A program made the position numbers and the translations under genes. Source: Candidatus Iainarchaeum sp. (lineage in GTDB: Archaea; Iainarchaeota; Iainarchaeia; Iainarchaeales; JAZDDZ01). From it: 42,546 nucleotides of DNA. The stretch is from assembly GCA_043809245.1 (NCBI GenBank), contig JAZDDZ010000044.1, positions 1 through 42,546 on the forward strand, read 5' to 3'. The notes beneath the pieces are model-generated. The model did no database searches, was not told the origin of the DNA, and worked only from the letters and a program-made list of their open reading frames with translations. Positions 773-36,613 of this stretch are shown in pieces (positions within the stretch are counted from its first letter, which is position 1; each line of letters begins with the position of its first letter).

Positions 773-897
773 GGCTGAATTGCCCGTGGAGGTTCGAAGG
801 AAATGGCTGTTTTTTTGGCAAAGGCGTTTAACGGATAAAATCTCTGGTTTTTTTTCGTTTTTTTCCAGGTTTGCTGACTTTTCGGAGAGGTGGTTAT

Positions 898-1185
898 ATG
901 GGTGCGAAAGCAAAAAGCAAGGTTGACTCAAAGGATTTTGAAAGCGTGGCTGAATTGATGGAAAACGTTTTAGAGGACACCGGTGTGCCGCGCAACATCA
1001 GGAATGCGGTGGACGAGGCAAGGGAAAAGGTTTTGAACAAGGCGGAAGAAGAAGGCGTGAGGGTCAGCTCCGCTATTTACGTGTTGGAGGACATAAGCAA
1101 TGACATAAACATGCCCTTCCACACGAGAACAGAAATTTGGACAATCATTTCAAGGCTTGAGAGCATAAGGGAGAAAACAAAGTAG
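898..1185 (+). CDS. Small conserved archaeal protein, UPF0147-like
   Basis: ATG at 898 is preceded by GGAGAGGTGG (SD-like). The six-frame ORF begins at TTG 871. Sequence resembles the small UPF0147 family (..DTGVPRNIRNA..MPFHTRTEIW..), recalled from memory. Confidence 0.5.
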   Translation: MGAKAKSKVDSKDFESVAELMENVLEDTGVPRNIRNAVDEAREKVLNKAEEEGVRVSSAIYVLEDISNDINMPFHTRTEIWTIISRLESIREKTK

Positions 1186-1221: not shown

Positions 1222-4104
1222 ATGGCTGAAACGCAGGCTGTCATAGCCGAAGAAAAACGGGTTTTGGATTACGTTGAGAAAAAAAACGCATTAGCGGAAG
1301 CAAAAGCCGTGAAGCTTTTAATGAACGCAAAGGAATTCGAAAAAATTGTGGACGAGCTTTTAGGCGAGGGCGTTTTCATTTTAACCGAGGAAAAGGTAAG
1401 GGAAAAAATTCTGAAAAAGGAAACAAAGCTCGGCGCAATAGAGGAAGAGGTTTTGGTTAAAAGGAAAAGCTTCAGGGCATTGGCAGAGGAAAGCGCGCCG
1501 CAGCTGAGGATTTTAAGCGAACTGGATGTAACAAACCAGATGGGCTCAAGGGGAACGGTTAAAAATTTTCTGCAGTTATTCCAGGACAAGTTTGAATTTT
1601 TAAGCTCGGTTTTAAGGCAGAGGATTAACTTTAACCCGAAGCCGATTTCAAGGCTTAATCGCGTGATGAAGAACAGCGAAGTCGACATCATTGGCATGAT
1701 CAGGGATAAAAGGATGAGCAAGAAGGGAAACCCGATTGTTTTTTTGGAGGACTTGGAGGCGGAATGCATTGCTGTTTTCTCCAAAAACGACCAAAGGGTT
1801 TTTGACCTTGCGAAAACAGTGGTGCTTGACGATGTCATAGGCGTGAAGGGAAAAAAAATAAGCGACGAAATGATTGTGGTCAATGACATTTTTTTCCCTG
1901 ATTTGCCGATGAAGCCGATCAAAAAAGTCGAAAGCACGCTGAACCTGGCGGTTATTTCGGACATGCATGTGGGAAGCAAGCTTTTCCTTGAAAAAGAATT
2001 CGGAAAATTCATTTCATGGTTAAACGGGAATGTAGGCTCGGAAAAAGAAATTGAAAGAATTGGCAGGATAAAATACCTGGTTGTGGCAGGGGACAATGTT
2101 GATGGAGTCGGAATTTATCCCGACCAATTTGACGAATTGGCGGTTAAGGACATTTTTGAACAGTACAATATTTTTTCGGAACTGATAAAACAGGTTCCAG
2201 AATACATTAAGGTGATAATCTGCACTCCCAAAGGAACCCTTTTAAAAACAGCCGAAGGTTATAAGCCGGTTGAAGAACTTAAGGAGGGCGACCAGGTCTT
2301 TTCATTTGATGAAAAGCAGGGGCGCGTTGTAACCAACAAGATACGCAACAAAATTAGCAGGTTTGCAAAAAAATTAATTAAACTAACTTTTACTGGTGGA
2401 GTAGAGCTTATTTGCACCCCTGAACATCCACTACTTGTATATGAGAACAAGATGCTAGTATGGAAAAACGCAAGCGAATTAACCGCGGGCAGTTTATTGC
2501 CGGTTCCACGAGCGCATAATGAACAAATGCAGATTAACACACTTGATTTACTGAACAAAATCAACGGAGAAATCTATATCAAAAAGCCTGAAACAATCCT
2601 ACTTTCATGCTATCAAAAAAAATCATTAAACCACATACCGGAAAGAACTAGAAGCAGTTATTTTTCTGGAGAGGCCCCAATGCCCTGGTCTTTGCTTGCA
2701 AAAACGAACAGCAATGAAGAAAAGTCATTTGACTGGCCCATCAAGGTAAAAACGCATCACGGCAATTATGTAAAATTGCCAAAAATCATCCCGCCTGAAT
2801 TTTTATATGCGCTTGGAATATTACTTACAGATGGAAGTTTTTCAAAAATAAAAAACAAATTCCCGGACGGTCGATGCGGGTTTTCCTACAGAGTCAGGAT
2901 ATTTAACTCAAACCAAGAAATAATTAATGCGGTTAAATCCTGCCTGAAAGAATTTGACATTGATCCTACGGAAGAATACATTGAATTTCCAAAAACCAGA
3001 AGCATTGCTGGCAGAGCAGTATCCTTTAGAAAACCTATCTTTAATTTGTCGTACACAAACCGCTTCCTTGGAGAACTGCTAATTGCTTTGGGTATAAATC
3101 CCGGGCCTAAGAAAAAAAGTAGTTTAGGGGCCTTGGCGACTCTTCCCTGGGAACATATAAAATACGTTCTAGGCGGCTTATTCGATGGTGATGGCACAAG
3201 ATCAAAAAAAATGACAACCCTTACTACCTCAAGCAAAAGATTTGCAACAGAAGTATTTTTACTTCTGCAAGAACATGGATTTGCGCCTAATTTAAGGTTA
3301 TCAAATAAAATTAATACAGTCTGCATTCATAGAAACCCCGATATTAAGCGCTTCTTTGGAGAAGTACCGCTAAAGCGTATTTCGAGAGATGTTCCGTCTA
3401 TGAATGACAACATCAGCAAAGGAAGGCTAAATAATGCGTATCCCGTTGATCTCCCCCTGAAAGATTTTGTTTTATGGCGCAAACTGGTGAAAAGTGAAGA
3501 AATAGCAGGTGAAACGGTATATAACCTAGAGGTGGAAAATGCGCACACGTATATTGCAATGGGTTTCATCAACCATAATTGCCCTGGGCAGCATGATGCG
3601 GTTCGAAGGGCCGACCCCCAGCCTGCAGTTCCCAAGGAATTTGTTAAAGATTTGTATTCCCTGAAAAACGTGCATTTTGTGGGAAGCCCTTCATGGGTGG
3701 AAATAGAGGGGCTCAAAACCCTTATTTACCACGGCGCATCTTTGCACGATCTTTATGCTTCGCTTAACTCTTTGAGTTCAAGGGAACCGCACAAGGCAAT
3801 AATTGAAATCCTGAAAAGGAGGAGCCTGATGCCGACTTATGGCTTGAGGCAGCCTTATGTTCCTGAAAAAAAGGATTTTCTGCTGATAAGGGAAGAGCCT
3901 GACCTGTACATTGGCGGAGACATGCATCACACTGGCTTTGCGCAGTACAAGGCATGCACTGTAATAAATTCAAGCACATGGCAGAAGCAGACAAACTTTC
4001 AATTGGAGCAGGGGCACGTTCCCACCCCTGGAATTGCGCTGGAATTGGACCTTCAAACCAGAAGCATGAGGGAAAATTATTTCATTGAACAGGAAAAAGA
4101 GTGA
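1222..4104 (+). CDS. DNA polymerase II (PolD) small subunit DP1, intein-containing (extein 333+175 aa, intein 453 aa)
   Basis: N-terminal DP1 domain. Calcineurin-like phosphoesterase motifs ISDMHVGS and VVAGDNVDG, then ..YIKVII|intein|CPGQHDAVRRADPQP.. and the C-terminal DP1 region (GGDMHHTGF..). Confidence 0.85.
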   Translation: MAETQAVIAEEKRVLDYVEKKNALAEAKAVKLLMNAKEFEKIVDELLGEGVFILTEEKVREKILKKETKLGAIEEEVLVKRKSFRALAEESAPQLRILSELDVTNQMGSRGTVKNFLQLFQDKFEFLSSVLRQRINFNPKPISRLNRVMKNSEVDIIGMIRDKRMSKKGNPIVFLEDLEAECIAVFSKNDQRVFDLAKTVVLDDVIGVKGKKISDEMIVVNDIFFPDLPMKPIKKVESTLNLAVISDMHVGSKLFLEKEFGKFISWLNGNVGSEKEIERIGRIKYLVVAGDNVDGVGIYPDQFDELAVKDIFEQYNIFSELIKQVPEYIKVIICTPKGTLLKTAEGYKPVEELKEGDQVFSFDEKQGRVVTNKIRNKISRFAKKLIKLTFTGGVELICTPEHPLLVYENKMLVWKNASELTAGSLLPVPRAHNEQMQINTLDLLNKINGEIYIKKPETILLSCYQKKSLNHIPERTRSSYFSGEAPMPWSLLAKTNSNEEKSFDWPIKVKTHHGNYVKLPKIIPPEFLYALGILLTDGSFSKIKNKFPDGRCGFSYRVRIFNSNQEIINAVKSCLKEFDIDPTEEYIEFPKTRSIAGRAVSFRKPIFNLSYTNRFLGELLIALGINPGPKKKSSLGALATLPWEHIKYVLGGLFDGDGTRSKKMTTLTTSSKRFATEVFLLLQEHGFAPNLRLSNKINTVCIHRNPDIKRFFGEVPLKRISRDVPSMNDNISKGRLNNAYPVDLPLKDFVLWRKLVKSEEIAGETVYNLEVENAHTYIAMGFINHNCPGQHDAVRRADPQPAVPKEFVKDLYSLKNVHFVGSPSWVEIEGLKTLIYHGASLHDLYASLNSLSSREPHKAIIEILKRRSLMPTYGLRQPYVPEKKDFLLIREEPDLYIGGDMHHTGFAQYKACTVINSSTWQKQTNFQLEQGHVPTPGIALELDLQTRSMRENYFIEQEKE
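2221..3579 (+). mobile_element. Intein with LAGLIDADG homing-endonuclease domain inside DP1 (Cys1 ... His-Asn, +1 Cys)
   Basis: Starts CTPKGTLLK (Cys1) and ends ..GFINHN followed by Cys. Two LAGLIDADG motifs (LYALGILLTDGSF and YVLGGLFDGDGT). It interrupts the phosphoesterase GNHD-type motif. 1359 nt, in frame. Confidence 0.8.
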
Positions 4105-4200: not shown

Positions 4201-4219
4201 AAAGAGTGAAAAAAAATGC
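4201..4219. repeat. Target-site duplication, right copy (aaagagtgaaaaaaaatgc), includes the DP2 ATG
   Basis: Direct repeat of 4096-4113. Confidence 0.75.
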
Positions 4220-7200
4220 CTGCAATTGAAGCACTGGTGAAAGGAAAAACGCTTAACGGCGCCGGGAAAAACAGCCTTAATTTCACTATTGTCGCAGAGG
4301 AAAGGATAAAAAAATATTATGACGCGATTGCCGCAAAGACCTTTGAACAATTTGAATTGGCGAAAAAGGCGAGGGCAAAGGGAAAAGATGTCAGCATGGA
4401 TGTTGAGACAACTCCCACAATGGACTTGGCTGACAGGTGTGAAAACATCACTGGCCCTAAGGGAATCGCAAAGAGATACAGGGAAGTAATAGAGGAAATG
4501 AAGGGCAACAGGATTAAAACTATTTTCAGGCTGTTTGAGGAAATCATCGCGGAAAAAGGCTTTGACCTTCCTGACCGGGAGAAAAGGCTGGAGCAGGCAA
4601 TGAGGACCTCGCTTGTGCTTGTAACCGAGGGAGTTGTTGTTGCGCCGCTGGACGGGGTGCCACAGGTCAAGATAAGCAAAAACTTTGACGGCTCAGAGTA
4701 CGTTGACATCTTTTACGCGGGCCCGATAAGGGCCGCAGGGGGAACAGCAACAGTGTTTCCGCTGATTTTAGGGGATTACGCCAGAAAGCTGATGGCATTG
4801 GACCGCTATAAGCCGACTGATGATGAAATTGAAAGATATGTCGAGGAAACGCAGATTTACGATGAAATCGTTACAAGGCAGTACAAGTCTTCGCCTGATG
4901 AGGTCAGGAAAATAATCAGGGGCTGCCCTGTATGCATTAACGGTGAACCAACCGAGGAAAGGGAAATCACTGTGCACAAGGACCTTGAAAGGGTTCCAAC
5001 AAACAGGGTTCGCGGAGGAATGTGCTTAGTGATAAGCGAAGGAGTAGGGCAAAAGGCGGCAAAAATTTTGACTTATGCCAAAATGCTTGGCCTTGACTGG
5101 AGATGGCTTGAGGAAATAATAAAGGTAAGCAAAGGCGGCGGAAAAGAGGAAAGCATTGGTCCAAGCACAAAGTACTTGGGAAGGATTGCCGCTGGCAGGC
5201 CAATCTTTTGCTATCCTTCAAGGCCAGGGGGATTCAGGCTGCGCTATGGAAGGGCCAGGACGACTTGCGCAATGGCGAAAGCAGTCCACCCTGCGACAAT
5301 GCAGTTGCTTGACGAATTCATTGCAGTGGGAACGCAATTGAAAGTTGAGAGGCCGGGAAAAAGCGCTGAAATGTTTGCATGTGATTCCATTGAAGGGCCG
5401 ATAGTTAAATTGCTTGACGGAGAGGTCAGGAAAATTGAGTCAATGCGCGAGGCACTTGAAGTGAAAAACAGCCTCAAGGAAATTCTTTTCCTCGGCGACT
5501 ATCTTGTTACGGTTGGGGATTTCAGGAAATCAGCGCATCCATTGATGCCTGTTGGCTACTGCGAGGAATGGTGGGCGCTTGAACTCAAAAAAGCGTTAAG
5601 CGAGGGAAAAGAAGCCGAGGGAGTCAACACGACAAAGGTTTTGAAGGAGCCGAGAAGCGTTGACTGCTTTACCGCTGTTGAAATTTCAATGCAGTCAGGC
5701 GTGCCAATGCACCCGAAATTCACCCACTATTATTCTTTGCTGGAAAAAGAAGAAGCCGTCGCACTTATTTCAGCTGCAAGGAGTGCGGGAAAAAGTTTTG
5801 AGGAAAACCTGATTGTCGAGGCAAGGCTTGAAAACAGTGAAAAAATAAAGGAAATGCTTGAAAAAATCGGATTGCCACACAAAGTTGACGGAAGCGAGCT
5901 TGTTATCGGGCGGGATTACGCTTACCCTTTCCTTAAGACATTCGGCGCATTCAGCAGCGCAGAGGTTCCTGAAGAAAAAAGCGTGCTTGAAATGCTTTCC
6001 GATGTATCGGGCCTGGTGATAAGGGACAAGGCCGGAACATTTGTCGGCACAAGAATGGGAAGGCCAGAGGCTTCAAGGCCGAGGAAAATGGTTGGAAACC
6101 CGCACATGCTTTTCCCGATAGGAATTTACGGGGGAAACACGCGTTCAATAAACAAGGCAATGAATTCAGCGGAAAAAAACCGCGTTGGAAGCATTGAAGT
6201 GGAAATCGCGTCATATTACTGCAAAAAATGCGGAAAAATAAATGCAACGGTTTCATGCACTGAGTGCGGGGGAAGAGCGGAAAAACTGGGCTCATGCACG
6301 AAATGCGGTGCGATGAGCGAAACCGAGAAATGCGCGAGGTGCGGCGCGCAGGTAAGCTTTTACGGCAAAAGAGCTGTTGACATAAACGCCTTGATGACAA
6401 GCGCCTTGCACGAATTAAAGGTAAAGCAGCCGGAAATAGTGAAAGGCGTAAAGGGATTGATGAACAAGGACAAGGAACCCGAGCCATTGGAGAAAGGGAT
6501 TTTACGCGCAGTGCATGATTTGCATATTTTCCGCGATGCGACGATAAGATATGAATTGCTTAACGCTGTGCTGACGCACTTCAAGCCCGAGGAACTCGGG
6601 ACAAGCGTTGAAAAGCTGAAGGAAATGGGTTATGAAAAGGATGTCAATGGAAGGCCATTGGAAAATGAGGGGCAGATGCTGGAGCTTTTTCCCCAGGACA
6701 TAGTCATCCATGAAAACGCGGGGGACTTCCTTGTAAGCGTCACGAAATTCATTGACGATTTGCTGGAAAAGTTTTACTCGCTGCCGCGCTATTACAACAG
6801 GAATTCACGGAATGAACTGGTTGGAGAGCTCGTGTTAGGGCTTGCGCCGCACACCTCAGCCGCGATTGTCGGCAGGATAATTGGCTACACAAAGGCAAGG
6901 CTTAACTTTGCGCATCCCTTTTTCCATTTATGCAAGAGAAGAAACATTGACGGAGACCAGGATTCAATCATGCTGTTAATGGACGGGCTGCTTAACTTCT
7001 CACACCATTATCTGCCAAGCTCACGCGGGGGAAGAATGGATGCTCCGTTGGTTTTCACTATTGCGTTAAATCCCGCGGAAATAGACGATGAAGCGCACGA
7101 GATTGAGACGTGCAGCGAGTATCCATTGGAGCTCTACGAGAAAGCACAGCAGTTTTTGCCTGCAGACATTAGCTCAATTCCAAGGGTAGGGCAAAGGCTT

Positions 7201-7698
7201 GGAAAAATAGGGCAATACACTGGAATAGGCTACACGCATGAAACACGCGTCTTTGACGAGGGCCCAAAGATGTCAAAGTATGTACAGCTTGCGACAATGG
7301 AGGAAAAAATCAAAAGCCAGGCAAAAATACAGTCAAAAATAAAGGCATTGGACAAAAAAGACGCGCTTGAAAGAGTGCTTGTGTCGCATTTTTTGCCTGA
7401 CATAATCGGAAACGCGCGGTCCTTCTCAAGGCAGACGTTTCGGTGCACTAACTGCAATTCAAAGTACCGCAGGATTCCATTGACAGGGAAATGCACGCGC
7501 TGCAAAGACGATGGAAACATTGTGCTCACAATAGCGCAGGGCTCTGTGAGAAAATACCTGCTGCTTGCAAAAGAAATCGTGAACAGCTACGGCTTGTCGA
7601 ATTACTTAAAGCAAAGGCTTGACTTGATACAGCAGGAAGTTGACTCCATTTTCGTGAATGAGAAGACAGACCAGAAAAGTTTGTTTGAATTCGTTTAA
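4216..7698 (+). CDS. DNA polymerase II (PolD) large subunit DP2, no intein
   Basis: 1160 aa. Conserved DP2 blocks (..LAPHTSAAIVGRIIGYT.., ..AHPFFHLCKRRNIDGDQDSIMLLMDGLLNFS..). Cys4 zinc-finger clusters (CKKCG..CTECG; CTKCG..CARCG; CTNCN..CTRC). Confidence 0.9.
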   Translation: MPAIEALVKGKTLNGAGKNSLNFTIVAEERIKKYYDAIAAKTFEQFELAKKARAKGKDVSMDVETTPTMDLADRCENITGPKGIAKRYREVIEEMKGNRIKTIFRLFEEIIAEKGFDLPDREKRLEQAMRTSLVLVTEGVVVAPLDGVPQVKISKNFDGSEYVDIFYAGPIRAAGGTATVFPLILGDYARKLMALDRYKPTDDEIERYVEETQIYDEIVTRQYKSSPDEVRKIIRGCPVCINGEPTEEREITVHKDLERVPTNRVRGGMCLVISEGVGQKAAKILTYAKMLGLDWRWLEEIIKVSKGGGKEESIGPSTKYLGRIAAGRPIFCYPSRPGGFRLRYGRARTTCAMAKAVHPATMQLLDEFIAVGTQLKVERPGKSAEMFACDSIEGPIVKLLDGEVRKIESMREALEVKNSLKEILFLGDYLVTVGDFRKSAHPLMPVGYCEEWWALELKKALSEGKEAEGVNTTKVLKEPRSVDCFTAVEISMQSGVPMHPKFTHYYSLLEKEEAVALISAARSAGKSFEENLIVEARLENSEKIKEMLEKIGLPHKVDGSELVIGRDYAYPFLKTFGAFSSAEVPEEKSVLEMLSDVSGLVIRDKAGTFVGTRMGRPEASRPRKMVGNPHMLFPIGIYGGNTRSINKAMNSAEKNRVGSIEVEIASYYCKKCGKINATVSCTECGGRAEKLGSCTKCGAMSETEKCARCGAQVSFYGKRAVDINALMTSALHELKVKQPEIVKGVKGLMNKDKEPEPLEKGILRAVHDLHIFRDATIRYELLNAVLTHFKPEELGTSVEKLKEMGYEKDVNGRPLENEGQMLELFPQDIVIHENAGDFLVSVTKFIDDLLEKFYSLPRYYNRNSRNELVGELVLGLAPHTSAAIVGRIIGYTKARLNFAHPFFHLCKRRNIDGDQDSIMLLMDGLLNFSHHYLPSSRGGRMDAPLVFTIALNPAEIDDEAHEIETCSEYPLELYEKAQQFLPADISSIPRVGQRLGKIGQYTGIGYTHETRVFDEGPKMSKYVQLATMEEKIKSQAKIQSKIKALDKKDALERVLVSHFLPDIIGNARSFSRQTFRCTNCNSKYRRIPLTGKCTRCKDDGNIVLTIAQGSVRKYLLLAKEIVNSYGLSNYLKQRLDLIQQEVDSIFVNEKTDQKSLFEFV

Positions 7699-7749: not shown

Positions 7750-10557
7750 ATGAATGCAAAAATAGTTTTGGTTTTAATTGTTGCGGTTGCATTAATCCAG
7801 GCTGCTTCAGCGGCAGTCATTTTCCAGGACAACTTTAATGGTTCGCCTTACTGGGATTCTCAGATGGGAACACGCGCACCGAACTGGGATTACTCGCCTG
7901 ATTGGAGTGCTTATGGTTTGCCTGATGCGCAGATTTTTGGTAGTTCTTGCGGGAGAATGAATTCGGGTTGTTTTCAGGTGAATTACGAGGACAGGGGCGA
8001 GCCATCAGGGCATTTGAATAAGGATTTCCCCGGCAATTCCGAGCTTTATTTTAGGTGGTATGTAAAGTTTGACAATAGGTGGATTTGGCAGAACCTTACT
8101 TTTTACAAAATGGCAAGATTTTACTGGAATTACCAGAATGACCCAGGCACCAATTATGTTACCATTCCCGACTGGGCCTGGATGCCCCCAAGGCTGTACA
8201 CTGGCGCGGGTGCTGGTGCAGGAACAATTTTGAGTGACCCCGCCAATCCTGTTTATTTTTCGGAGTTTGGCGCGGGAAAATGGTATGAGATAGAATTCCG
8301 CTTAAAAAACAATGATTTAGGGCAAAACAACGGAATACTGCAGGTTTGGTTCAATGGAAAGCTGCGCCAAACCTACAACAATATCAGTTATGTTGGCCAG
8401 CAACAATTATTGATTGACCACTTCAATATAGGCGACAACACCAATAATCAGGCATTGGTTGGAATTGCGCCAAACGAATGGTGGGTTAGGCACGATGATG
8501 TAAAGGTCAGCACAACATACATTGGCCCAGAGCCATGCCCAAACGAAACTGAAATCACCCCTGAAAACGTTGGCGCCTGTTATTGTGGAACCACTACACC
8601 CAACCCCGCTTGCTCGCCAACAAACACAACAGCATGCACTGGAGTAGTTGACTCGGGTTACTGCAACAACGGAGTATGGAGCCCAAGCGGAACAAGTGAC
8701 ACCACTCCGCCAACAGTTTCAATTAGTTCGCCGACAACAGGTTCAACTGTTTCTGGCACAATAACTGTTACAGCCAACGCCTCGGACAATGTGGCTGTTG
8801 CGGGAGTGCAATTCAAATTAGACGGAAGCAATTTGGAAAGCGAGGACTTATCAGCGCCTTACTCGGTTTCATGGAATACTACAACAGCTTCAAATTCTTT
8901 GCATGCTTTGACTGCTGTTGCAAGGGATGCAAGTGGAAACACTGCAACTTCCACAACAGTTAATGTAACAGTGAATAATGCGGCAAGCACCGGTTGGGTT
9001 TTTTGCGCAAACGAAGGCGAAACCTGCAGTTTCACAGGAACACGACAGGTCAGATACGGAGCAAACCAAACATACGCGTACGGAACATACACTAACTCGG
9101 TTTCATGCAGCAACTCAGTATTCGGAGACCCAATCTACGGAGCAGCAAAACAATGCGACTACAACAGTTCAACTACAAGCTGCACTGAAAACTGGTCATG
9201 CACTGCATGGAGCACATGCTCTGGAGGAACACAAACAAGAACCTGCACTGATTCAGCCGCATGCGGAACCACTGTAAACAAGCCAGTGGAAACGCAAAGC
9301 TGTTCCACTCCAGGCGCGGGAGTGATTTTCGAGGATGATTTTGAGGGATGGAATGATGCGGTGCCAAATGACAGTTCTTTAATCTGGAGTCCAGCAAACG
9401 GAAGCATTTCCTCAGCATCAAACGGAAAATGGTGCTCCTCACAACAATGGAACGAATACGGCCTGCCAGACACACAGGTAATTCCATCAAAAGGAAGATA
9501 CAACAGCCAATGCGTTGAAGGCAACATTGAATCAAGAGTCCAACCCGCAGCAGGAGTTGTAAGCCTACTGCCCGACAAAACACACGACGAACTATACTTC
9601 AGGTGGTACACAAAATACGACCCCACATGGAGTTGGTGGCCAAACCAAAACGGGCAAAAACTCGCAAGAATGAGTGTAGGCCCCGCAGACATTGGCTGCA
9701 CCACTTTAAATGACCACATAATTCCCACCTTTGCATGGGGAAGAATGGCCTATGAAATATTTCCAAGCGTTATAACCCCTGTTTATTCTGACCCTGAGGT
9801 CACATGGTATGACCGCGGCGCGGGAAAATGGATTTTAATTGAAGTGTATTCCAAATTGAATACTGTCGGGCAAAGCGACGGAGTTTTAACCTCGTGGATT
9901 AATGGAAAAAAAGTATTGCACAAGGAAGGAGTGGTTATAAGAAACAGCAATTACAACTTCACTAATCTCACAATCGGCGATAATATAATCTACACAAACC
10001 AGGCAGGAAGCTCCGGCGTTCCCTGGTTGCCTCCTGAGGAAAAACAAATATGGTGGGATGACGTTAAAGTTTCAACCAGTTTCATTGGCCCGGAACCCTG
10101 CAAAAACGGAGTTGAAATCACGCCAGAAAACGTTGGAACATGCTACTGCGGAACAGGCACGCCAAACCCAGATTGCGCTACTAACACTAATCCTCCTTCC
10201 ACAAACCCAGCAGCAGGAGAATACATTACCCCAAACCCATCAGCATGCACTGGCATAGTTGATTCAGGCTACTGCTGCAATGGCTCCTGGCAAACAACAA
10301 GCTGCACACCCGCAGTGCAGTGCACGGTTAACGTTGCAAACCCATGCACAATCTCTCTCGCAGGGGGAACAATCAATTCCTGCACACAGCAAAACCTAAT
10401 CTACCAATACAACGCAACAACAACGGTAAATCACACAGTAAACGGATTGCAGGCAAGCAAGGCATACGACATCAAAATAGAAAACACCACGCAGGGGACA
10501 ACGCAAAACAAAACCGCAAGCACCAATGCCTCGGGCATGCTGCAGTTCGGTTCCTGA
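7750..10557 (+). CDS. Secreted Cys-rich multi-module surface protein (signal peptide; two jelly-roll-like modules, Ig-like domain, Cys-rich small modules)
   Basis: N-terminal signal peptide MNAKIVLVLIVAVALIQAASA. Internal duplication: two modules each containing YFRWY.K[FY]D..W and WWDDVKVST..IGPEPC..EITPENVG.CYCG. Ig-like stretch TPPTVSISSP..VTANASDN. Paralog at 29588-32365. Confidence 0.7.
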   Translation: MNAKIVLVLIVAVALIQAASAAVIFQDNFNGSPYWDSQMGTRAPNWDYSPDWSAYGLPDAQIFGSSCGRMNSGCFQVNYEDRGEPSGHLNKDFPGNSELYFRWYVKFDNRWIWQNLTFYKMARFYWNYQNDPGTNYVTIPDWAWMPPRLYTGAGAGAGTILSDPANPVYFSEFGAGKWYEIEFRLKNNDLGQNNGILQVWFNGKLRQTYNNISYVGQQQLLIDHFNIGDNTNNQALVGIAPNEWWVRHDDVKVSTTYIGPEPCPNETEITPENVGACYCGTTTPNPACSPTNTTACTGVVDSGYCNNGVWSPSGTSDTTPPTVSISSPTTGSTVSGTITVTANASDNVAVAGVQFKLDGSNLESEDLSAPYSVSWNTTTASNSLHALTAVARDASGNTATSTTVNVTVNNAASTGWVFCANEGETCSFTGTRQVRYGANQTYAYGTYTNSVSCSNSVFGDPIYGAAKQCDYNSSTTSCTENWSCTAWSTCSGGTQTRTCTDSAACGTTVNKPVETQSCSTPGAGVIFEDDFEGWNDAVPNDSSLIWSPANGSISSASNGKWCSSQQWNEYGLPDTQVIPSKGRYNSQCVEGNIESRVQPAAGVVSLLPDKTHDELYFRWYTKYDPTWSWWPNQNGQKLARMSVGPADIGCTTLNDHIIPTFAWGRMAYEIFPSVITPVYSDPEVTWYDRGAGKWILIEVYSKLNTVGQSDGVLTSWINGKKVLHKEGVVIRNSNYNFTNLTIGDNIIYTNQAGSSGVPWLPPEEKQIWWDDVKVSTSFIGPEPCKNGVEITPENVGTCYCGTGTPNPDCATNTNPPSTNPAAGEYITPNPSACTGIVDSGYCCNGSWQTTSCTPAVQCTVNVANPCTISLAGGTINSCTQQNLIYQYNATTTVNHTVNGLQASKAYDIKIENTTQGTTQNKTASTNASGMLQFGS

Positions 10558-23607: not shown

Positions 23608-23645
23608 TTGATTAACATAAAGGGCAATTTTTGCGAGGTATTACA

Positions 23646-26600
23646 ATGGATTTACTTAAAGAAATAAAGGAAATAGTCAGCACGTCGCTGCCTGAAGAGG
23701 CGCGCGTTACATCAGTGGACCTTGAAGGGCCGGAGGTTGCGGTTTACACCAAGAACCCAAAGGCTTTCTTTGAGAACGAAAACTTTGTGGCAAAGCTTGC
23801 ATTTGACTTGAAGAAAAGGGTTAACATCAGAACAGACAAAAGCCTGCTTATCCCAGAGGAAGAGGCAAAGAAAAAAATAGAGGAAATTCTGCCAGCTGAC
23901 GCCGGAGTAAAGGACATCCAATTCAATCCCGCTTTCTCGGAAGTCGTAATCGAGGCAATAAAGCCAGGCCTGGTTATAGGCAAGGGCGGGGAAACAAGCA
24001 AAAAAATCATACTTGAGACTGGATGGACGCCGAATATTTTAAGGGCCCCCACGACCCCCTCTGAAATACTGAAGGGAATAAGGCATCACTTGCACAAGTA
24101 CAGCGCGGAGAGGAAAAAAATACTGCAGGAAACCGCGAAAAAAATTTACGAGGAAAGGGACGGCAAAAGCAACGGCTGGATTAGGATGACTGCATTGGGC
24201 GGATACCGCGAAGTTGGAAGAAGCTGCATGCTCGTGGAAACAAGGGACACAAAAATCATAATGGATTGTGGAATAAACGTTGCAAACAGCGATGAGCCAT
24301 ATCCCTATCTTGACGCAATAAGGTTTCCAATAAACGAATTGGATGCAATAATCATCAGCCACGCGCACTTGGACCACTCTGGTTTCACCCCGTACCTTTT
24401 CAAGCTTGGCTATCGTGGGCCAGTATATTGCACTGCCCCAACCCGAGACCTGATGGCTTTGCTGCAGTTCGACTACATTGATGTTTTGCTTAAAGAGGGA
24501 AAAGAGCCGCCTTACAGTGAAAGGGATGTAAAGGAAATGGTAAAGTACTGCATTACAAGGGAATACCGGGAAGTCACGGATATTGCGCCGGACATGAGGT
24601 TAACGTTCCATAACGCTGCGCACATTCTTGGAAGCGCTTCAGTTCACTTGCACATGGGTGAGGGGGCGCACAACCTTGTTTATTCTCTGGACCACAAAGT
24701 GCCTGTAACAATTATAGATAAACACAACAATGTGCATACTGAAGAAATCGGGAAATTGGTTGACAGGGAGATTAAAAAATTTGGAGTTAGTGACGGCTAT
24801 GTTGATGAAGCGGCTAACCTTTCCGGCTGGAAAACCATAGCCTTCAACCCGTTAACGTTAAAGGCGGAAAAAGTCGAGATAACTTCTTTTGTTAGGCATC
24901 CAATCAACGAGGACTTGTTTGAGATTAAAACCAAAAGCGGCAGGAAAACCATTGTTACAGGTTCGCACAGCGTTTTTACTGTTAAAGACGGAATAGTTAC
25001 AGATATTATGGCAAAGGATTTAACACTTGGCGATTACATTGTTGGCTTAAGAAGGCTTAACATAAAAGCCGAAAAACCGATAATTTCGTTGCCTCAAAAT
25101 AAGTTTGCGGTAAAATTAAATGGCGAAAAATTGGAAACCCGCTTGAATGAGACCTATGAAAAGATAAAGAAACGTTTTCCAGATATGGAAAATAAGCTAA
25201 TGTGCTGGGCAAGAGAGCATCTGGAAAACGGCTTGTATGAAAATGCAATTGCCAAAAAGTACAATGCAAGCAGGAAAACTGTAAGAAAATACTTTAAAGA
25301 ATTAGGAATACAAAAAAATCTCCGCAGAGGCACGCTTTTTGCTTCCCAAATCGAAATAAAAAAGGATTTTGCGCGTTTTTTGGGATACTTTGTGTCTGAA
25401 GGTAGCACGAATAAAAACACAGTAATAATTACGCAGTACGATAAGAAAATGCTTGAGGATTCTATCCGGATTATTGAATGTAATTTTGGAATTAAGGGCA
25501 AGATAGTTAGAAATGAAGCACAGTTTTATTCCAAACAGCTGGCATTACTGCTTAAGGAAGTGCTGGCTTGCGGGAATAATGCGCATGCCAAAAGAGCGCC
25601 AAGGCAAATAATGCTTGCTGAAGAAGATGTTATCGCAGAATTTTTGAAGGGGTGCTTTTTAGGCGATGGGTGTTTCATAAAAAAGCCTAAAGGCATGTAT
25701 GTGAACTGTACCTCTAAGAGCAAATTTTTGATTCAGGAAATTGGATTTTTGCTATTGCGAATTGGAATAGCGGCAACATTCACCTATAACAAATCAATTA
25801 GAATGCATAACCTCAACATTTATGGGCAAGAACAGTTAGACCGATTTTTCAAGTTTATTAGTATTGAAAAATGGGAAAATAAATACCGGGCGCATAAGTA
25901 CGCGTATAAAAAAAGTTGTTTTGCAGACAGAATTCCAATATCGGCATTAAGCCAGCAGACACAAGAGACGTTTAATTTAAGTTCGTACAGAGCAGCTAAA
26001 TCATGCAGTACAGCAATGCTTCTACGTTCAAGCCAAAATACTTTGGAGAAAAAACTTGTTGAATCGGACTTACTGTTTGATGAAATAAACAGCATTAGAA
26101 AGGTACGTTCCAGCAGCAAATATGTGTATGATTTTAGTGTAACAGGCTATGAGAATTTTTTAGGCGGTTCAGGGCACCTATTCATGCATAACACCGGTGA
26201 CTTCAAGTACGGTTTCACAAGGCTGTTCAACAACATTGACATGCAGTACCCGAGGCTTGAAACGCTTATAATTGAAAGCACTTACGGTTCAAGGGACGAC
26301 ATAATGCCGCAAAGGCAGGAAGCAGAGGAAATCCTTTTGGAAGTGATAAGGGAGGCAACCGAAAGGGGAGGCAATGTCCTTATACCTGTGTTTGCGGTTG
26401 GAAGGGCACAGGAAATAATGCTTGTAATAGAGAACTTTTACCGCAGGGGATTGATTGACGCAAAAGTCTTTGTTGACGGAATGACAAGGGAGGCAAGCGC
26501 AATTCACACCGCTTACCCTGAGTACCTAAGGGAAATAGTGCAGAGAAGGGTGCTGACAAATGATTCTCCTTTCACTTCAGATGCATTCCAGGTCATAGAC

Positions 26601-27044
26601 CCCCAAAACCGCGACGCAGTATTGAATGAAAAGAAGGCAATAATCATCAGTTCCTCGGGAATGCTTACAGGCGGCCCGGCAGTTTATTACTTTAACAAGA
26701 TGGCAGAAGACCCCTTGAATACGCTTATTTTTGTGGGCTATCAGGGAGAAGGCTCGCAGGGAAGAAAAATTCAGTCAGGGCTGCGTTCAATGCCAGTGAA
26801 TGTCAACGGAAAGACAAGGGAGTTACACATAAAGATGCAGGTGGAGACAGTTGAAGGTTTCAGTGGGCATTCAGATTTTATGCAGCTTGCAAATTATGTA
26901 AGGAACCTAAAGCCCAAGCCAAAGAAAGTCATAGTAGACCACGGCGACCAGTCAAAGACAGTTGAATTCGCGAAATTCCTTGCAAACAAGTTCAAATTGA
27001 ACTGCACTGCGCCAAGAGACCTGGATTCGCTAAGGCTGAAATAA
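23646..27044 (+). CDS. aCPSF1-type beta-CASP/metallo-beta-lactamase RNase with N-terminal KH domains, intein-containing (extein ~630 aa, intein 503 aa)
   Basis: KH motif VIGKGGE. MBL motifs HAHLDHSG and AAHILGSA, then ..HNLVY|intein|TGDFKYG.. and the beta-CASP C-terminus (..GFSGHSD..VDHGD). Confidence 0.85.
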   Translation: MDLLKEIKEIVSTSLPEEARVTSVDLEGPEVAVYTKNPKAFFENENFVAKLAFDLKKRVNIRTDKSLLIPEEEAKKKIEEILPADAGVKDIQFNPAFSEVVIEAIKPGLVIGKGGETSKKIILETGWTPNILRAPTTPSEILKGIRHHLHKYSAERKKILQETAKKIYEERDGKSNGWIRMTALGGYREVGRSCMLVETRDTKIIMDCGINVANSDEPYPYLDAIRFPINELDAIIISHAHLDHSGFTPYLFKLGYRGPVYCTAPTRDLMALLQFDYIDVLLKEGKEPPYSERDVKEMVKYCITREYREVTDIAPDMRLTFHNAAHILGSASVHLHMGEGAHNLVYSLDHKVPVTIIDKHNNVHTEEIGKLVDREIKKFGVSDGYVDEAANLSGWKTIAFNPLTLKAEKVEITSFVRHPINEDLFEIKTKSGRKTIVTGSHSVFTVKDGIVTDIMAKDLTLGDYIVGLRRLNIKAEKPIISLPQNKFAVKLNGEKLETRLNETYEKIKKRFPDMENKLMCWAREHLENGLYENAIAKKYNASRKTVRKYFKELGIQKNLRRGTLFASQIEIKKDFARFLGYFVSEGSTNKNTVIITQYDKKMLEDSIRIIECNFGIKGKIVRNEAQFYSKQLALLLKEVLACGNNAHAKRAPRQIMLAEEDVIAEFLKGCFLGDGCFIKKPKGMYVNCTSKSKFLIQEIGFLLLRIGIAATFTYNKSIRMHNLNIYGQEQLDRFFKFISIEKWENKYRAHKYAYKKSCFADRIPISALSQQTQETFNLSSYRAAKSCSTAMLLRSSQNTLEKKLVESDLLFDEINSIRKVRSSSKYVYDFSVTGYENFLGGSGHLFMHNTGDFKYGFTRLFNNIDMQYPRLETLIIESTYGSRDDIMPQRQEAEEILLEVIREATERGGNVLIPVFAVGRAQEIMLVIENFYRRGLIDAKVFVDGMTREASAIHTAYPEYLREIVQRRVLTNDSPFTSDAFQVIDPQNRDAVLNEKKAIIISSSGMLTGGPAVYYFNKMAEDPLNTLIFVGYQGEGSQGRKIQSGLRSMPVNVNGKTRELHIKMQVETVEGFSGHSDFMQLANYVRNLKPKPKKVIVDHGDQSKTVEFAKFLANKFKLNCTAPRDLDSLRLK
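24684..26192 (+). mobile_element. Intein with LAGLIDADG homing-endonuclease domain inside aCPSF1 (Ser1 ... His-Asn, +1 Thr)
   Basis: Starts SLDHKVPVTIID and ends ..GHLFMHN followed by TGDFK. LAGLIDADG motifs FLGYFVSEGST and FLKGCFLGDGC. 1509 nt, in frame. Inserted immediately before the MBL motif-4 Asp. Confidence 0.8.
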
Positions 27045-29587: not shown

Positions 29588-32365
29588 TCAACTGCTGAAC
29601 TGCAGCACTCCTGTGGAATTTGTGCTAACGGTCTTATTCTGCGCGGTTCCTGTTGTCTGGTTTTTTATTTCAATGTCGTATGCCTTGCTTGCCTCCAACC
29701 CGTTAACTGTGTTGTTCACTGTTGTCGTTGCGCTGTACTGGTAAATCAGATTCTGCTGCAAGCATGTGTTGATTGTTCCCCCTGCAATTGAAATAGTGCA
29801 GGGTGTTGAAATGTTGACTGTGCACTGCAGCGCGGGAGTGCAGGAATTTGTTTGCCAGGAGCCATTGCAGCAGTAACCCGAGTCAACTATTCCTGTGCAT
29901 GCTGATGGATTTGGTGCAGAGCATTCTGGCGAAGCTGAACTGTTTCCGCAGTAGCATGTGCCGACGTTTTCTGGTGTGATTTCCACTCCGTTTTGGCATG
30001 GTTCAGGACCAATGTATGTGGTGCTTACAATGAAATCGTCCCACCATATTTGTTTTTCTTCTGGTGGTGACCATGGAACGTCCAAAGAGCCTCCGCCGCC
30101 GTCGTAGATTATGTTGTCGCTCAGCGTGACATTGTTGAAATGCCCTTCCGCAGACCTGAGGCTTATGCCGCTAACATCAAAGATTTTTTTTCCATTAATC
30201 CATGAAGCCGCTCTCCCGTCATTCAGCCCTACTGTGTTGAGTTTTAAGTAATCCTCTATTAGTATCCACACACCTCCATTGTAATCATACCATGTTGCGC
30301 CTTTTTCGTTGTCAGGGTAAATTGATTGATCATTGTAGGGAATTGTCCTGTAAACCATTCGCCCCCAACTCCATCCCGGAATATTGTAAGCTCGCCCTCC
30401 GGATGGCAAATCCGCGCAAGCCTGTGAATCTGTGAGAGATTTAATGCGCATTAATTTGTGTATGTTTTGGTTTGGCCACCAAGCCCAATCCACGGCGTAT
30501 TTTACATAATAACGGAAATAGAGTTCGTCGTGGTCCTTTTCAGGAAGCCATGCAGTCATTCCTCCAGATGGTTCCTGCCCTCCTTCTATATTTACCTGCA
30601 TGCACCCGCTGTCAAGCCTGCCGCTATGGTTGATTATTTGTTCAGTAGGGAGTCCATAATTACTCCAAGGCCTGAACTGGCACCATTCGCTTCCTTCAGG
30701 CCTGCATGATGTAATGCTGTCACCTAACTCGCATAAAACATCAGGTTTGGGATTAATATTCTTCCAATTCTCAAAATGGTCCTCGAAAATCACTCCCGCC
30801 CCTGGCAAAGAGCAGCTTTGCGTTTCCACTGGCTTGTTGTTTGTTGTTCCGCATGCGGCTAAATCAGTGCAGGTTCTTGTTTGTGTTCCTCCAGAGCATG
30901 CACTCCATGCCGTGCAGCTCCATGTTTCTGTGCAGCTTGTCGTTGAACTGTTGTAGTCGCAGTGTTTTGTTGCTCCGTAGATTGGGTCTCCGAAAACTGA
31001 GTTGCTGCATGAAACCGAGTTAGTGTAAGTGCCATAGGCGTATGTGTTGTTTGCTCCGTATCTGACCTGCCTTGTTCCGGAAAAACTGCATGTTTGCCCT
31101 TCGTTTGCACAAAAAGTCCAGCCACTGGTTGCAGTATTGTTCACTGTCACGTTAACTGTTGTGCTTGTTGCAGTGTTTCCGCTTGCATCCCTTGCAGTTG
31201 CAGTCAATGCATGTGAAGCATTTGAAGCCGTAGTCGTATTCCATGAAAAAGAGTAAGGCGCGCTTGTGTCCTCGCTTCCCAGATTGCTTCCGTCTAATTT
31301 GAATTGCACTCCAGCCACTCCAACATTATCCGAAGCGTTCGCTGTAACGCTAATTGTGCCTGAAACTGTTTGCTCTGAAGTGGGAGAGGTAATGGAAACT
31401 GTGGGTAGAGTAGTATCACTTGTCCCGCTTGGGCTCCAAACACCATTATTGCAGTAACCCGAGTCAACTATTCCCGTGCATGCTGTTGTGTTTGTTGCAT
31501 TGCAGTCTGGGTTCGGCGCAGTGGTTCCGCAGTAGCAGGTTCCGACATTTTCAGGGGTGATTTCAATACCGTTCGGGCAGGGCTCCGGGCCTAAATATGT
31601 GGTGCTGACTTTTACGTCGTCGTGCCTGACCCACCATTCGTTTGGCGATATTCCAACCAATGCCTGGTTGTTGGTGTTGTCGCCTATATTGAAATGGTCA
31701 ATTAATAATTGTTGCTGGCCAACATAACTGATATTGTTGTATGTTTGGCGTAGCTTTCCATTGAACCAAACCTGCAGTATTCCGTTGTTCTGCCCTATCG
31801 TATTATTTTTAAAGCGAAATTCAATTTCATACCATTTTCCCGCGCCGAATTCTGAAAAGTAAACAGGATTGGCGGGGTCACTCAAAATTGTTCCTGCGCC
31901 TGCACCCGCGCCAGTGTATAGCCGGGGGGGCATCCATGCCCAGTCAGGGATAGTTACATAACTAGTTCCAGGGTCATTCTGGAAATTCCAGTAAAATCTT
32001 GCCATTTTGTAAAAAGTAAGGTTTTGCCAAACCCACCTATTGTCAAACTTCACATACCACCTAAAGTAAAGCTCGGAATTGCCGGGCAAATTCTTATTCA
32101 AATGCCCTGACGGTTCCCCCCGATCCTCGTAATTCACCTGAAAACAACCCGAATTCATTCTACCGCAGGAACTCCCAAAAATCTGCGCATCAGGCAAACC
32201 ATAAGCGCTCCAATCAGGAGACGTTCCCCAATTCGGAGCTGCTGTACCCATCTGAGAATCCCAGTAAGGCGAACCATCAAAATCATCCTGGAAAATAATT
32301 GCGGCCGAAGCTGTCTGCATTAACGCTATTGCAAGAATTAAAGCCAAAACGATTTTTCCATTCAT
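29588..32365 (-). CDS. Paralog of the 7750-10557 secreted Cys-rich multi-module surface protein (inverted orientation)
   Basis: The first ~520 aa are ~90% identical to the 7750-10557 product (exact nucleotide runs up to 29 bp). The second jelly-roll module is divergent. The C-terminal Cys-rich tail and the ..LQFSS* ending are conserved. Confidence 0.7.
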   Translation of the reverse strand: MNGKIVLALILAIALMQTASAAIIFQDDFDGSPYWDSQMGTAAPNWGTSPDWSAYGLPDAQIFGSSCGRMNSGCFQVNYEDRGEPSGHLNKNLPGNSELYFRWYVKFDNRWVWQNLTFYKMARFYWNFQNDPGTSYVTIPDWAWMPPRLYTGAGAGAGTILSDPANPVYFSEFGAGKWYEIEFRFKNNTIGQNNGILQVWFNGKLRQTYNNISYVGQQQLLIDHFNIGDNTNNQALVGISPNEWWVRHDDVKVSTTYLGPEPCPNGIEITPENVGTCYCGTTAPNPDCNATNTTACTGIVDSGYCNNGVWSPSGTSDTTLPTVSITSPTSEQTVSGTISVTANASDNVGVAGVQFKLDGSNLGSEDTSAPYSFSWNTTTASNASHALTATARDASGNTATSTTVNVTVNNTATSGWTFCANEGQTCSFSGTRQVRYGANNTYAYGTYTNSVSCSNSVFGDPIYGATKHCDYNSSTTSCTETWSCTAWSACSGGTQTRTCTDLAACGTTNNKPVETQSCSLPGAGVIFEDHFENWKNINPKPDVLCELGDSITSCRPEGSEWCQFRPWSNYGLPTEQIINHSGRLDSGCMQVNIEGGQEPSGGMTAWLPEKDHDELYFRYYVKYAVDWAWWPNQNIHKLMRIKSLTDSQACADLPSGGRAYNIPGWSWGRMVYRTIPYNDQSIYPDNEKGATWYDYNGGVWILIEDYLKLNTVGLNDGRAASWINGKKIFDVSGISLRSAEGHFNNVTLSDNIIYDGGGGSLDVPWSPPEEKQIWWDDFIVSTTYIGPEPCQNGVEITPENVGTCYCGNSSASPECSAPNPSACTGIVDSGYCCNGSWQTNSCTPALQCTVNISTPCTISIAGGTINTCLQQNLIYQYSATTTVNNTVNGLEASKAYDIEIKNQTTGTAQNKTVSTNSTGVLQFSS

Positions 32366-35400: not shown

Positions 35401-36613
35401 CGGCTGTTTCTGAAAAAATCTGCTTTAGCGAGGAAGTTGTTTCGCCAATGGTTGACGCACCCAAAAGTTCGTCCATTTCAGAGGAGTTAAAGCGGGAGGA
35501 AAGCTCAGCAAGTTTTTGCGATGAGTCCCGCTTAAGCGTTGAAATGTCGCGGAAACTGTAAACCGATGAAGAGATTGTTGCGTTTGACTGCTCGCCGAGA
35601 AGCGAGTAAAGCTTTGAAAGGAAATTCTGGTCAAAGGAAGAAAATGCCGCGGAATCAATTGAGGAGATGGTTTGGCTGAGCTCTGAGAAAAGAGATTGTG
35701 TTTTCTGCTTGAGTTCGCTATTCCGTTCAGAGAGCTGGCACCTGTGAAGCGCATCGGAGTTTAACAAATCCGAGAATTTTTTTGCAGCTGAATTTTGCGC
35801 GCCGATTATTGAATCAAGGGCAGAGAAAAGCCCGAAGGAAGGCAAGGATGAGAGTTTTTTCAAAGCAAGCTCGGGTTCCATCAAAACAGATAGAACTGAA
35901 ATCAGGGAATTGGACAAGGGAAGGAGAACCGGGAAAAAATAGCCGAAATTCCTTTGCTGGAGAAGGCGGTTTGCGGAAAGATTTTCAGCTGAATCAACGC
36001 CGGAAAGCAGTAGCGCAAGCTTTTGCGAGTTAACCCTAAGCGTTCCAGTGTAAGTGCCCGAATCCATTATTTCATTGCTTTTGAGCTCCGCAAGGTTTTC
36101 ATTTAATTCAACGAAATCGCTGAACAAGGGCTCTTCCTTTATCAGGTTAATTTCCTGCGATGAAAGCTCCGCGGTTTCAATTGCAATCGCGTTTGAGGAA
36201 AGCTCGGCCGCTGAATCCATTTCCCTGAAAGCATTTGAAGCGTTGAATGCAAGGCTGTTCACGAAAGGCGGAATTCCTGAAAGATCATTGGAGGCAAGGC
36301 ATGTTTCCCTGATTTTCTTCACATCCGAAAGGGCGAGGTTAAAGTAAAGCCAGGCGCGCGCCAAATGGTTCTGGTATTCAGCCAAAAGCCGCTGCAATGA
36401 AGGGGAAAAAAGTTCAGCATCAATTGGCAAAAGCTTCTGGAGCTTTGCAAAGCAGTCTTCCTGGGATTTGCATTCAGGTATAGAAGTCTGGGCATAAGAG
36501 GCCAGGGAAATACAGGCAAAGCGCTCCTCGTTTGAGGCAAACTTAAGGCAGCCGATTAAAAGGAAAAGTAAGCAAAACAGGGTTAAAAGCAGGTATTTCA
36601 TTGAAATCATCAA
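32414..36613 (-). CDS. Giant (1399 aa) Ser/Leu/Ala/Glu-rich predicted coiled-coil surface protein with N-terminal signal peptide and C-terminal TM anchor
   Basis: N-terminus MMISMKYLLLTLFCLLFLLIGC. C-terminus LSAYPLLAIIAGGIIFIYWKK. Long low-complexity helical-repeat-like sequence. Antisense ORFs inside are treated as shadows. Confidence 0.6.
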   Translation of the reverse strand: MMISMKYLLLTLFCLLFLLIGCLKFASNEERFACISLASYAQTSIPECKSQEDCFAKLQKLLPIDAELFSPSLQRLLAEYQNHLARAWLYFNLALSDVKKIRETCLASNDLSGIPPFVNSLAFNASNAFREMDSAAELSSNAIAIETAELSSQEINLIKEEPLFSDFVELNENLAELKSNEIMDSGTYTGTLRVNSQKLALLLSGVDSAENLSANRLLQQRNFGYFFPVLLPLSNSLISVLSVLMEPELALKKLSSLPSFGLFSALDSIIGAQNSAAKKFSDLLNSDALHRCQLSERNSELKQKTQSLFSELSQTISSIDSAAFSSFDQNFLSKLYSLLGEQSNATISSSVYSFRDISTLKRDSSQKLAELSSRFNSSEMDELLGASTIGETTSSLKQIFSETAALKENIDFLYNESINSLSALCTAKSKEIDARLKSSSFSEANETVFNLASRVRFKLSRFNEAETEREKLLQCSVLVEEFASLESAQKDFVSFELELGGDIKECISQLDKIFSGTQNGTINDFRANYSQLKSLSAQPTDAIYLKNACISLKQAVENALMQEDAPAAIASNAAKSKEILAQLDSLRKISPEAVSSSRLDSLREKISLQEKYFSAGKLDFAVAAPVLRELELSSQKILDEASALLLGSLKTFLEKNALLEFFSTETVEANKKVSSRLKLSLENPISDFPFPLDLSIPFSSSATEKTLSFSTPNISSAELTGKAITLKLSSVPLGPTAAVFDLNEVLAETTEKTSLLFIDSSSAFFEKTISLDAKALIPKLKVASSLSLKGSADIPRDVSVFVECAPANFSLEGGSLFLLLENVKGGKKISAFFSLQEPIDFSFEFSSKKQLDENSFEYVFLLRLKNLLPIELNETRIAIPAPIESENPEAASLFSSDGKKIALEFLPPGKISFKLPQLQPMQSTALIFSFTAKNEEAYWRAFFLDLRQRLSLLSSSPNQQFASSASALLSELSLLESVFNENDRQKVEQAVSLLKNASLLEQSASSAAELESKLFLLSSEVSSAISNAEQQLKELNSLGFTADALELRKKISSVQTFFEQAQQLKSSGKNEEALAALFDAKNILSSIQPKNAQEILLSARDSLAATAMDSFSLLESLGVDDANYSSLKENFLSLDELFSRNISSGEMPDAKQSLAALNSAAEDLNSFAENFLESKTSSALQKIALLEELSGKTIPSKIMSLQRMFDDLASDSFQSIEFVSPISKERLEKISLSIESLSDPLLAQQFSEFKRLSKSEKFEEALQKAASFEPKLDSALEKAKSFDNELSLAIDSLKEEAFAAYSMASLKLNNSEPNSQAESFLEKAEKKLEGGDYFKALAFSQAATALLSLKQPTALIGLGVPLSAYPLLAIIAGGIIFIYWKKHNEKNNAPQMKKIPKSE

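Follow-up and report, generated by a model that had tools for sequence, protein, structure and literature searches.

Intein-containing DP1 gene

The 42,546-nucleotide contig JAZDDZ010000044.1 of Candidatus Iainarchaeum sp. (GenBank assembly GCA_043809245.1), the whole of which is called the window here, carries a gene for DP1, the small or proofreading subunit of the DNA polymerase PolD, whose open reading frame (ORF) is interrupted by an intein. The gene, the intein and their parts lie as follows.

1222..4104, forward strand: DP1 (PolD small/proofreading subunit) precursor gene, 960 amino acids (aa) plus stop, GenBank MFH1256718.1
1222..2220, forward strand: N-extein, 333 aa, comprising the DP1 N-terminal region, the OB fold and phosphodiesterase (PDE) motifs I (SDMHVGS) and II (GDNVDG), ending in ...EYIKVII
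2221..3579, forward strand: intein, 453 aa, with a LAGLIDADG homing-endonuclease domain set into a HINT splicing domain
2221..2259, forward strand: block A, CTPKGTLLKTAEG, with Cys1 as the first splicing nucleophile, invariant in three complete homologs
2407..2439, forward strand: block B, LICTPEHPLLV, containing T-x-x-H (T66, H69)
2803..2838, forward strand: first LAGLIDADG motif (block C), LYALGILLTDGS, with the acidic residue D204
3166..3198, forward strand: second LAGLIDADG motif (block E), VLGGLFDGDGT, with the acidic residue D324
3517..3558, forward strand: block F, VYNLEVENAHTYIA
3562..3579, forward strand: block G, GFINHN, with penultimate His452 and terminal Asn453
3580..3582, forward strand: Cys+1 codon, the first C-extein residue, aligning with G447 of Pyrococcus abyssi DP1
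3580..4104, forward strand: C-extein, 174 aa plus stop, with PDE motifs III-V, starting CPGQHDAVRRADPQP
3583..3597, forward strand: PDE motif III, PGQHD, whose Q790 and H791 are the counterparts of N450 (metal ligand) and H451 (catalytic) in P. abyssi DP1

The insert is a stop-free run of 453 codons (2221-3579, forward strand) that reads from CTPKGTLL... to ...GFINHN within a single ORF. Translation reproduces, exact to the base, the in-frame insert, the boundary residues and the rejoined sequence given in the original prediction, which had been made from the letters of the DNA alone; the Cys start, the His-Asn end before a Cys and the two LAGLIDADG motifs that it described are all present, and intein models of both Pfam and NCBIfam match. 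Searched on its own against Pfam, the insert hits Intein_splicing over residues 13-453 with a score of 66.9 bits (E=2.2e-18, cutoff 35.8 bits) and LAGLIDADG_3 at E=3.4e-13 in two stretches, and in the whole ORF the NCBIfam models TIGR01445 (intein_Nterm) and TIGR01443 (intein_Cterm) fall on aa 334-406 and 766-787, respectively. This match to inteins is far above chance. The features of a class-1 intein are found throughout: exact removal restores the host protein, Cys1 and the T-x-x-H motif (in CTPEHPLLVY) are in place, the fold is of the HINT type, and blocks F and G lead up to the junction VYNLEVENAHTYIAMGFINHN/C, the slash marking here and below the splice point. Each of the two LAGLIDADG helices carries an acidic end residue (ALGILLTD204G and LGGLFDGD324G).

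The flanks of the insert match NCBIfam equivalogs of the PRK04036 family (425 bits at most) in two stretches, with the break at residue 334; the Pfam DNA_pol_E_B match picks up again at residue 788 of the 960-aa ORF. They comprise an OB fold and a calcineurin/Mre11-like PDE domain with motifs I-V, and adjoin a DP2 gene. The precursor misses the curated NCBIfam DP1 cutoffs only because the intein splits the match. Deleting residues 334-786 gives a 507-aa DP1 whose alignment to that of P. abyssi (5IHE, E=1e-80) runs through the junction with no gap, and E values against the DP1 entries of the PDB range from 1e-79 to 1e-80.

Insertion site in the exonuclease active site

At the junction, the spliced window protein reads viiCPGQHDAvrra against mfiGPGNHDAarpa in P. 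abyssi, for which full-length numbering was derived from 6t8h (chain index +144). The splice site thus lies 3 residues before the metal ligand N450 and 4 before the catalytic H451. N450 is one of seven metal ligands, and H451 is catalytically essential and is the residue mutated to obtain exo-minus PolD (PMC10721889, PMC4996933). The alignment places the intein where the beta-strand ...VII gives way to the active-site loop CPGQHD. Here, at the entrance to PDE motif III, it directly precedes the motif in whose region it had been predicted. In the precursor, the intein separates motifs I-II from motifs III-V, and since these stay apart until splicing, the precursor is presumably inactive as an exonuclease.

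Comparison with DP1 orthologs, a check suggested beforehand, defined the site, as intein-free relatives read straight through it (...VVICPGQHD in P0058, ...IFICPGQHD in P0070 and ...VFICPGQHD in P0091). The +1 Cys is native, since intein-free P0058/L006, P0070 and P0091/L004 also have Cys at the site. A Cys before PG[NQ]HD occurred in 26 of 42 and in 14 of 144 motif-bearing sequences of two hit sets, nearly all of them intein-free DP1s. An origin of Cys+1 as an adaptation to the intein was rejected, as many intein-free DPANN DP1s have this Cys; similarly, the Gln of PGQHD is not an intein scar, as it is present in intein-free relatives and co-varies with a change in motif V.

This change concerns the metal site of DP1 in the host clade of the insertion site, called site b here. 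Motif III reads PGQHD in place of PGNHD (Q790, 3589-3591; N450 in P. abyssi) and motif V reads G-D/E-x-H in place of G-H-x-H (D900, 3919-3921, GDMHH in the window; H560 in P. abyssi). D or E was found in motif V of all 18 resolvable Q-type sequences, whereas 131 of 136 N-type sequences keep His; P0002, P0003, P0013, P0051 and P0058 are among those with the variant. In Mre11, the residues equivalent to the motif-III N and the motif-V H presumably coordinate the same metal. The correlated change suggests an altered rather than an inactive metal site, and it is independent of the intein, since intein-free proteins carry it too.

DP1 inteins at the same site and in motif II

Four site-b copies were found besides that of the window, two complete and two fragmentary (48-64% identical), and a second insertion point, site a, was found in motif II of the DP1s of two other DPANN MAGs (metagenome-assembled genomes).

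JGI contig Ga0643563_0025813 (L001/P0051): site b, intein of 454 aa, 59% identical to the window intein
CAZUCF010000003.1, a contig of a species-representative MAG (L008): site b, intact DP1 ORF of 968 aa, intein 49% identical to that of the window
P0052, fragment: site b, 64% identical to the window intein
P0072, fragment: site b, 50% identical to the window intein
MDD5163555.1, Ca. Iainarchaeum sp. (P0003): site a (motif II), intein of 418 aa
NYZ75233.1, Ca. Micrarchaeota (P0079): site a (motif II), intein of 413 aa

The junctions I/CTP...INHN/CPGQHDA are identical in the window, L001/P0051, L008, P0052 and P0072. The three complete copies, 453-454 aa each and 48-59% identical, keep every splicing residue, both LAGLIDADG motifs, D204, D324 and much of the endonuclease core invariant; at this level of amino-acid identity, synonymous sites are saturated. 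By their sequences, the site-b inteins are one intein allele family with the same junctions, length and catalytic residues at 48-64% identity, in which the kinship of the hosts does not track that of the inteins. The site-a inteins resemble the window intein in their DP1 host, their LAGLIDADG domain, Cys1, TPEH and HN/C, and in lying within a metal-binding PDE motif. They differ in their insertion point, the junction GD[NA]/C...VVHN/CDG being two residues past the motif-II Asp, and they are 51% identical to each other yet only about 25% to the window intein, which marks them as an independent invasion. Of the expectation that the site may be rare or new, rarity held up in the collections searched, but the site is not unique to the window.

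How rare such genes are can be seen from the searches. An exhaustive phmmer search over 1.84 billion representative proteins gave 546 matches at E<1e-30, the best 150 of which included only one full-length intein-bearing DP1 (P0079, site a) and the two site-b fragments. Word-indexed protein searches recovered few members and missed L008 and P0072. Scanning 185,579 species genomes with the degenerate DNA pattern for HN-CPG[NQ]HDA gave a single archaeal match, L008, along with two bacterial ones that are presumably due to chance (L007, Pedobacter; L009, a beta-proteobacterium). In JGI metagenome contigs the exact pattern had no match, and a profile-guided scan of the same contigs returned 33 loci with distant inteins (phmmer 55 bits at most), none of them encoding DP1.

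Two of the related loci show irregularities. L001 has a single in-frame TGA (843-845) in its N-extein at a Gly codon (GVK-stop-VK; the window has GVKGKK and L008 GIKGVK), which could be a sequencing error, the onset of pseudogenisation or recoding. In the ENA contig L003 (1-1466), only the C-terminal ~240 aa of the intein and ~40 aa of C-extein are present. They are joined to the C-terminus of an FtsH-like protein (Peptidase_M41), and the upstream sequence is unrelated; either the assembly is chimeric or the copy has decayed.

Predicted structure and related inteins

An AlphaFold2 model of the intein was built on an alignment of 8 sequences and compared with the PDB by Foldseek. Its mean predicted local distance difference test score (pLDDT) was 72.8 and its predicted template modelling score 0.78, with block means of about 81-95 in the HINT lobes (aa 1-100 and 416-453). 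The whole chain matched large inteins of archaea and yeast, namely PI-TkoII (2cw7, E=3.5e-18), TliVMA (7qss), PhoVMA (7qst), PI-PfuI (1dq3) and PI-SceI. The splicing part matched mini-inteins and the hedgehog HINT domain, and the endonuclease part matched I-DmoI (target-normalised TM-score 0.6-0.68) as well as the endonuclease domains of PI-TkoII, PI-PfuI and PI-SceI. The modelled endonuclease has the pseudo-dimeric alpha-beta-beta-alpha-beta-beta-alpha fold, with some loops at pLDDT <50.

The HINT plus two-motif LAGLIDADG architecture is shared with the solved large inteins PI-TkoII (Tko Pol-2, 2CW7), TliVMA/PhoVMA (7QSS/7QST), PI-PfuI (1DQ3) and PI-SceI (1VDE), as is the class-1 residue set of Cys1, TxxH, HN and a +1 nucleophile. 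Even though Foldseek E values range from 3.5e-18 to 1e-9, identity to these inteins is only 11-15%, and their hosts are PolB, V-ATPase and ribonucleotide reductase with other insertion sites, whereas the window intein lies in DP1. Moreover, the stretch of ~100 residues that leads from block B to the first LAGLIDADG motif (aa ~97-190) is modelled with low confidence and has no clear counterpart in them. The DP2/PolC inteins (Pab PolII 2LCJ, 5BKH/7OEC) belong to the same PolD holoenzyme. DP2 mini-inteins (7oec, 5bkh, 2lcj) are the best PDB sequence matches to the N-terminal HINT lobe (aa 23-96, E=2.4e-5), and NCBIfam models of intein-bearing DP2 also match. DP2 inteins likewise sit in a catalytic loop (PMC4996933). 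However, those with solved structures are endonuclease-free mini-inteins of 169-186 residues, and they are inserted in DP2, which has no intein in the window.

Proposed splicing and homing, and alternative explanations

We consider the insert to be a splicing-competent class-1 intein, with a probability of roughly 0.9 on the strength of its residues and modelled fold. Once the 960-aa precursor is translated, an N-S acyl shift at Cys1 would be followed by attack of Cys+1 to give a branched intermediate; cyclisation of Asn453, helped by His452, would then release the 453-aa intein, and an S-N shift would join the exteins into a contiguous 507-aa DP1 (ligated peptide VIICPGQHDAVR). The free intein would be a site-specific endonuclease that cuts intein-free DP1 alleles at VII/CPGQHD, and repair of the break templated by the intein-bearing allele would copy the intein in. 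The LAGLIDADG endonuclease is probably still active, judging from its conserved residues, a claim that we make with less assurance than that of splicing. Homing of this kind would explain the patchy spread of the intein among Diapherotrites-type DPANN archaea.

Mobility is suggested by the discordance between inteins and hosts. Between the hosts L001 and L008, identity is 75% in the N-extein and 85% in the C-extein, yet only 48% between their inteins; the window host and L001 are 39% and 56% identical in the respective exteins, yet their inteins 59%. Among the intein-free alleles compared, P0091/L004 is the closest relative of L001 (62% N-extein identity), and intein-free L004 and intein-bearing L001 have the same peptide across the site. 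Moreover, the GC content at third codon positions (GC3) is 0.371 in the DP1 intein, against 0.52 in both exteins and 0.533 in DP2, the mean of the window being 0.505 with a standard deviation of 0.045 (17 genes or gene segments). The variation in presence and absence, the intein-host incongruence and the deviant GC3 point, indirectly, to a mobile DP1 intein and favour its horizontal spread through homing over simple vertical descent.

Several points weigh against this interpretation. Splicing and DNA cleavage are read from conserved residues and fold, and about 20% of the model (residues 124-149, 257-270 and 363-412) has pLDDT <50, so parts of the endonuclease and the linker are poorly defined. 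Block F reads VYN, with Asn at the position of the Asp (VYD) that forms the consensus in many inteins. The incongruence rests on the identities of three complete and two partial sequences, the identities of 48-64% among the inteins imply that none of the transfers is recent, and the in-frame TGA in its N-extein indicates that the L001 copy may be decaying.

The strongest competing explanation, which we nevertheless regard as unlikely, is that splicing has been kept with an inactive endonuclease, the intein being a fixed, vertically inherited passenger late in the homing cycle. That the copies are old and diverged (48-64% identical) would fit such a passenger, as would the 33 metagenome loci whose inteins are related, not one of which lies in DP1 or is close in sequence. 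Yet no change is seen at D204, D324 or in much of the endonuclease core among the three complete copies, which also keep 453-454 aa, whereas decaying endonucleases normally lose motifs or become mini-inteins; the discordant intein and host similarities and the varying presence of the intein among related hosts also weigh against it.

It is more doubtful still that the intein has been domesticated and is not purely selfish, with conditional splicing that would switch PolD proofreading or DP1-DP2 assembly post-translationally, for example through a redox-sensitive disulfide between Cys1 and Cys+1. The insertion inside the exonuclease active site and the Cys nature of both nucleophiles are compatible with a switch, and a Cys1-Cys+1 disulfide trap has reportedly been described for the P. 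abyssi PolII (DP2) intein. A functional meaning for the clustering of inteins at replisome active sites has also been argued (PMC4760082). However, no sequence feature demands or specifically supports regulation, active-site insertion is the general pattern of selfish inteins, and the intein-free alleles of close relatives indicate that the host has no need of the intein. If a switch did exist, DPANN archaea would control replication fidelity post-translationally, PolD proofreading or DP1-DP2 assembly being off until splicing.

A dead intein or pseudogenising insertion that leaves DP1 non-functional is very improbable. The TGA of L001 and the truncated L003 fragment, fused to unrelated sequence, could point that way, but the window ORF is intact over its 960 codons with all PDE motifs and splicing residues, the 968-aa DP1 of L008 is intact as well, and the list of ORFs in the window contains no second one of DP1 length, the large ORFs scanned against Pfam being other proteins. 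In archaea that rely on PolD, DP1 is essential. Finally, a lineage-specific DP1 domain lacking blocks A, B, F and G, which had been named as the finding that would overturn the intein call, or an assembly chimera, for which only the origin of the contig from a MAG could be cited, is practically untenable given the presence of all four blocks, intein models (hidden Markov models) matching at E=1e-17 to 1e-18, a fold search that finds inteins, excision at exact residues that yields a gapless DP1 and the same junctions in four further independent assemblies.

DP1 as an intein host

The suspicion that DP1 is uncommon as an intein host agrees with the sources covered. It is outside the top 15 archaeal intein hosts in Novikova et al. 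(PMC4760082), where the table label "small subunit" refers to PolB (COG0417), and the five DP1 equivalog models of NCBIfam all have the length of an intein-free protein (481-650 positions). The polymerase reviews examined mention inteins solely in PolB and DP2, and full-text literature searches found no report of a DP1 intein, InBase and the supplementary tables of Novikova et al. being outside their scope. DP1 is apparently a rare and unreported intein host, although the sources covered do not extend to a claim that no catalogue lists it. The novelty lies in the host and in the insertion sites; the element itself is a textbook intein, and the general understanding of inteins is unchanged by this case.

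With it, the proofreading subunit of PolD joins the replication proteins invaded by inteins. The two insertion points in DP1, motifs II and III, are both metal-binding, in keeping with the general rule that inteins insert at the most highly conserved codons of active sites. We hold it more likely that DP1 is a previously uncatalogued intein host of the replisome, with at least two independent active-site insertion points, than that splicing acts as a switch; if so, the pattern that inteins cluster in the replisome would extend to the proofreading subunit. The specificity of the endonuclease, directed at the DP1 motif-III coding sequence, would be new, and the intein, from a mesophilic-looking genome of about 45% GC, is a potential Cys/Cys splicing tool.

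There is also a consequence for annotation. MFH1256718.1 is named only "LAGLIDADG family homing endonuclease" in GenBank; together with MDD5163555.1 and NYZ75233.1, the names in use are this one or "hypothetical protein", and none of the five proteins was named DP1 by a source. Because of these names and the missed DP1 model cutoffs, the intein-bearing MAGs seem to be without DP1 and thus without an essential replication gene.

Neighbouring genes and a second intein

Other genes of the window that bear on the DP1 locus, or that carry a further intein, are as follows.

871..1185, forward strand: UPF0147 gene, conserved upstream neighbour of DP1, given for context only
4216..7698, forward strand: DP2 (PolD large subunit), 1160 aa, intein-free, downstream operon partner of DP1
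23631-27044, forward strand: FttA/aCPSF1 (transcription termination factor), 1137 aa, second intein-bearing gene of the window
about 24684-26192, forward strand: LAGLIDADG intein of FttA/aCPSF1, 503 aa, Ser1...His-Asn/Thr+1

DP2 matches NF003103 in a single stretch (positions 3-1124 of 1125), and since this match is unbroken DP2 is intein-free, as had been stated of its contiguous conserved blocks. The UPF0147 gene precedes DP1 in the window and at every related locus examined. DP2 follows DP1 in related loci wherever the contig is long enough, with the exception of L004, where the ORFs downstream of DP1 have no DP2 annotation. In L002 (8675-11783), a Ca. Iainarchaeum locus with a motif-II DP1 intein, two restriction-modification genes with N6_Mtase/MmeI_Mtase/Eco57I and TaqI_C domains lie between DP1 and DP2, unlike the other loci with DP2 present, where it is directly 3' of DP1.

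The second intein interrupts the conserved HNLVY/TGDFKY of the metallo-beta-lactamase domain of FttA. Once it is removed, the remaining 634 aa align gaplessly to 2YCB (E=5e-213). Its GC3 is likewise low, 0.39 against 0.53 for its exteins. A literature search found no report of an FttA intein. The DP1 and FttA inteins are distant relatives and not copies of each other, with only 26% identity over 106 aa.

Elsewhere in the window, Rfam and tRNA scans found nothing, and the 1399-aa ORF at 32414-36613 (reverse strand) had no Pfam match at E<=0.001. Two large proteins of ~930 aa, encoded at 7750-10557 (forward strand) and 29588-32365 (reverse strand), each have a Big_7 Ig domain and two polysaccharide-lyase-14-like stretches and are apparently paralogous; the former begins with an N-terminal hydrophobic, signal-like segment.

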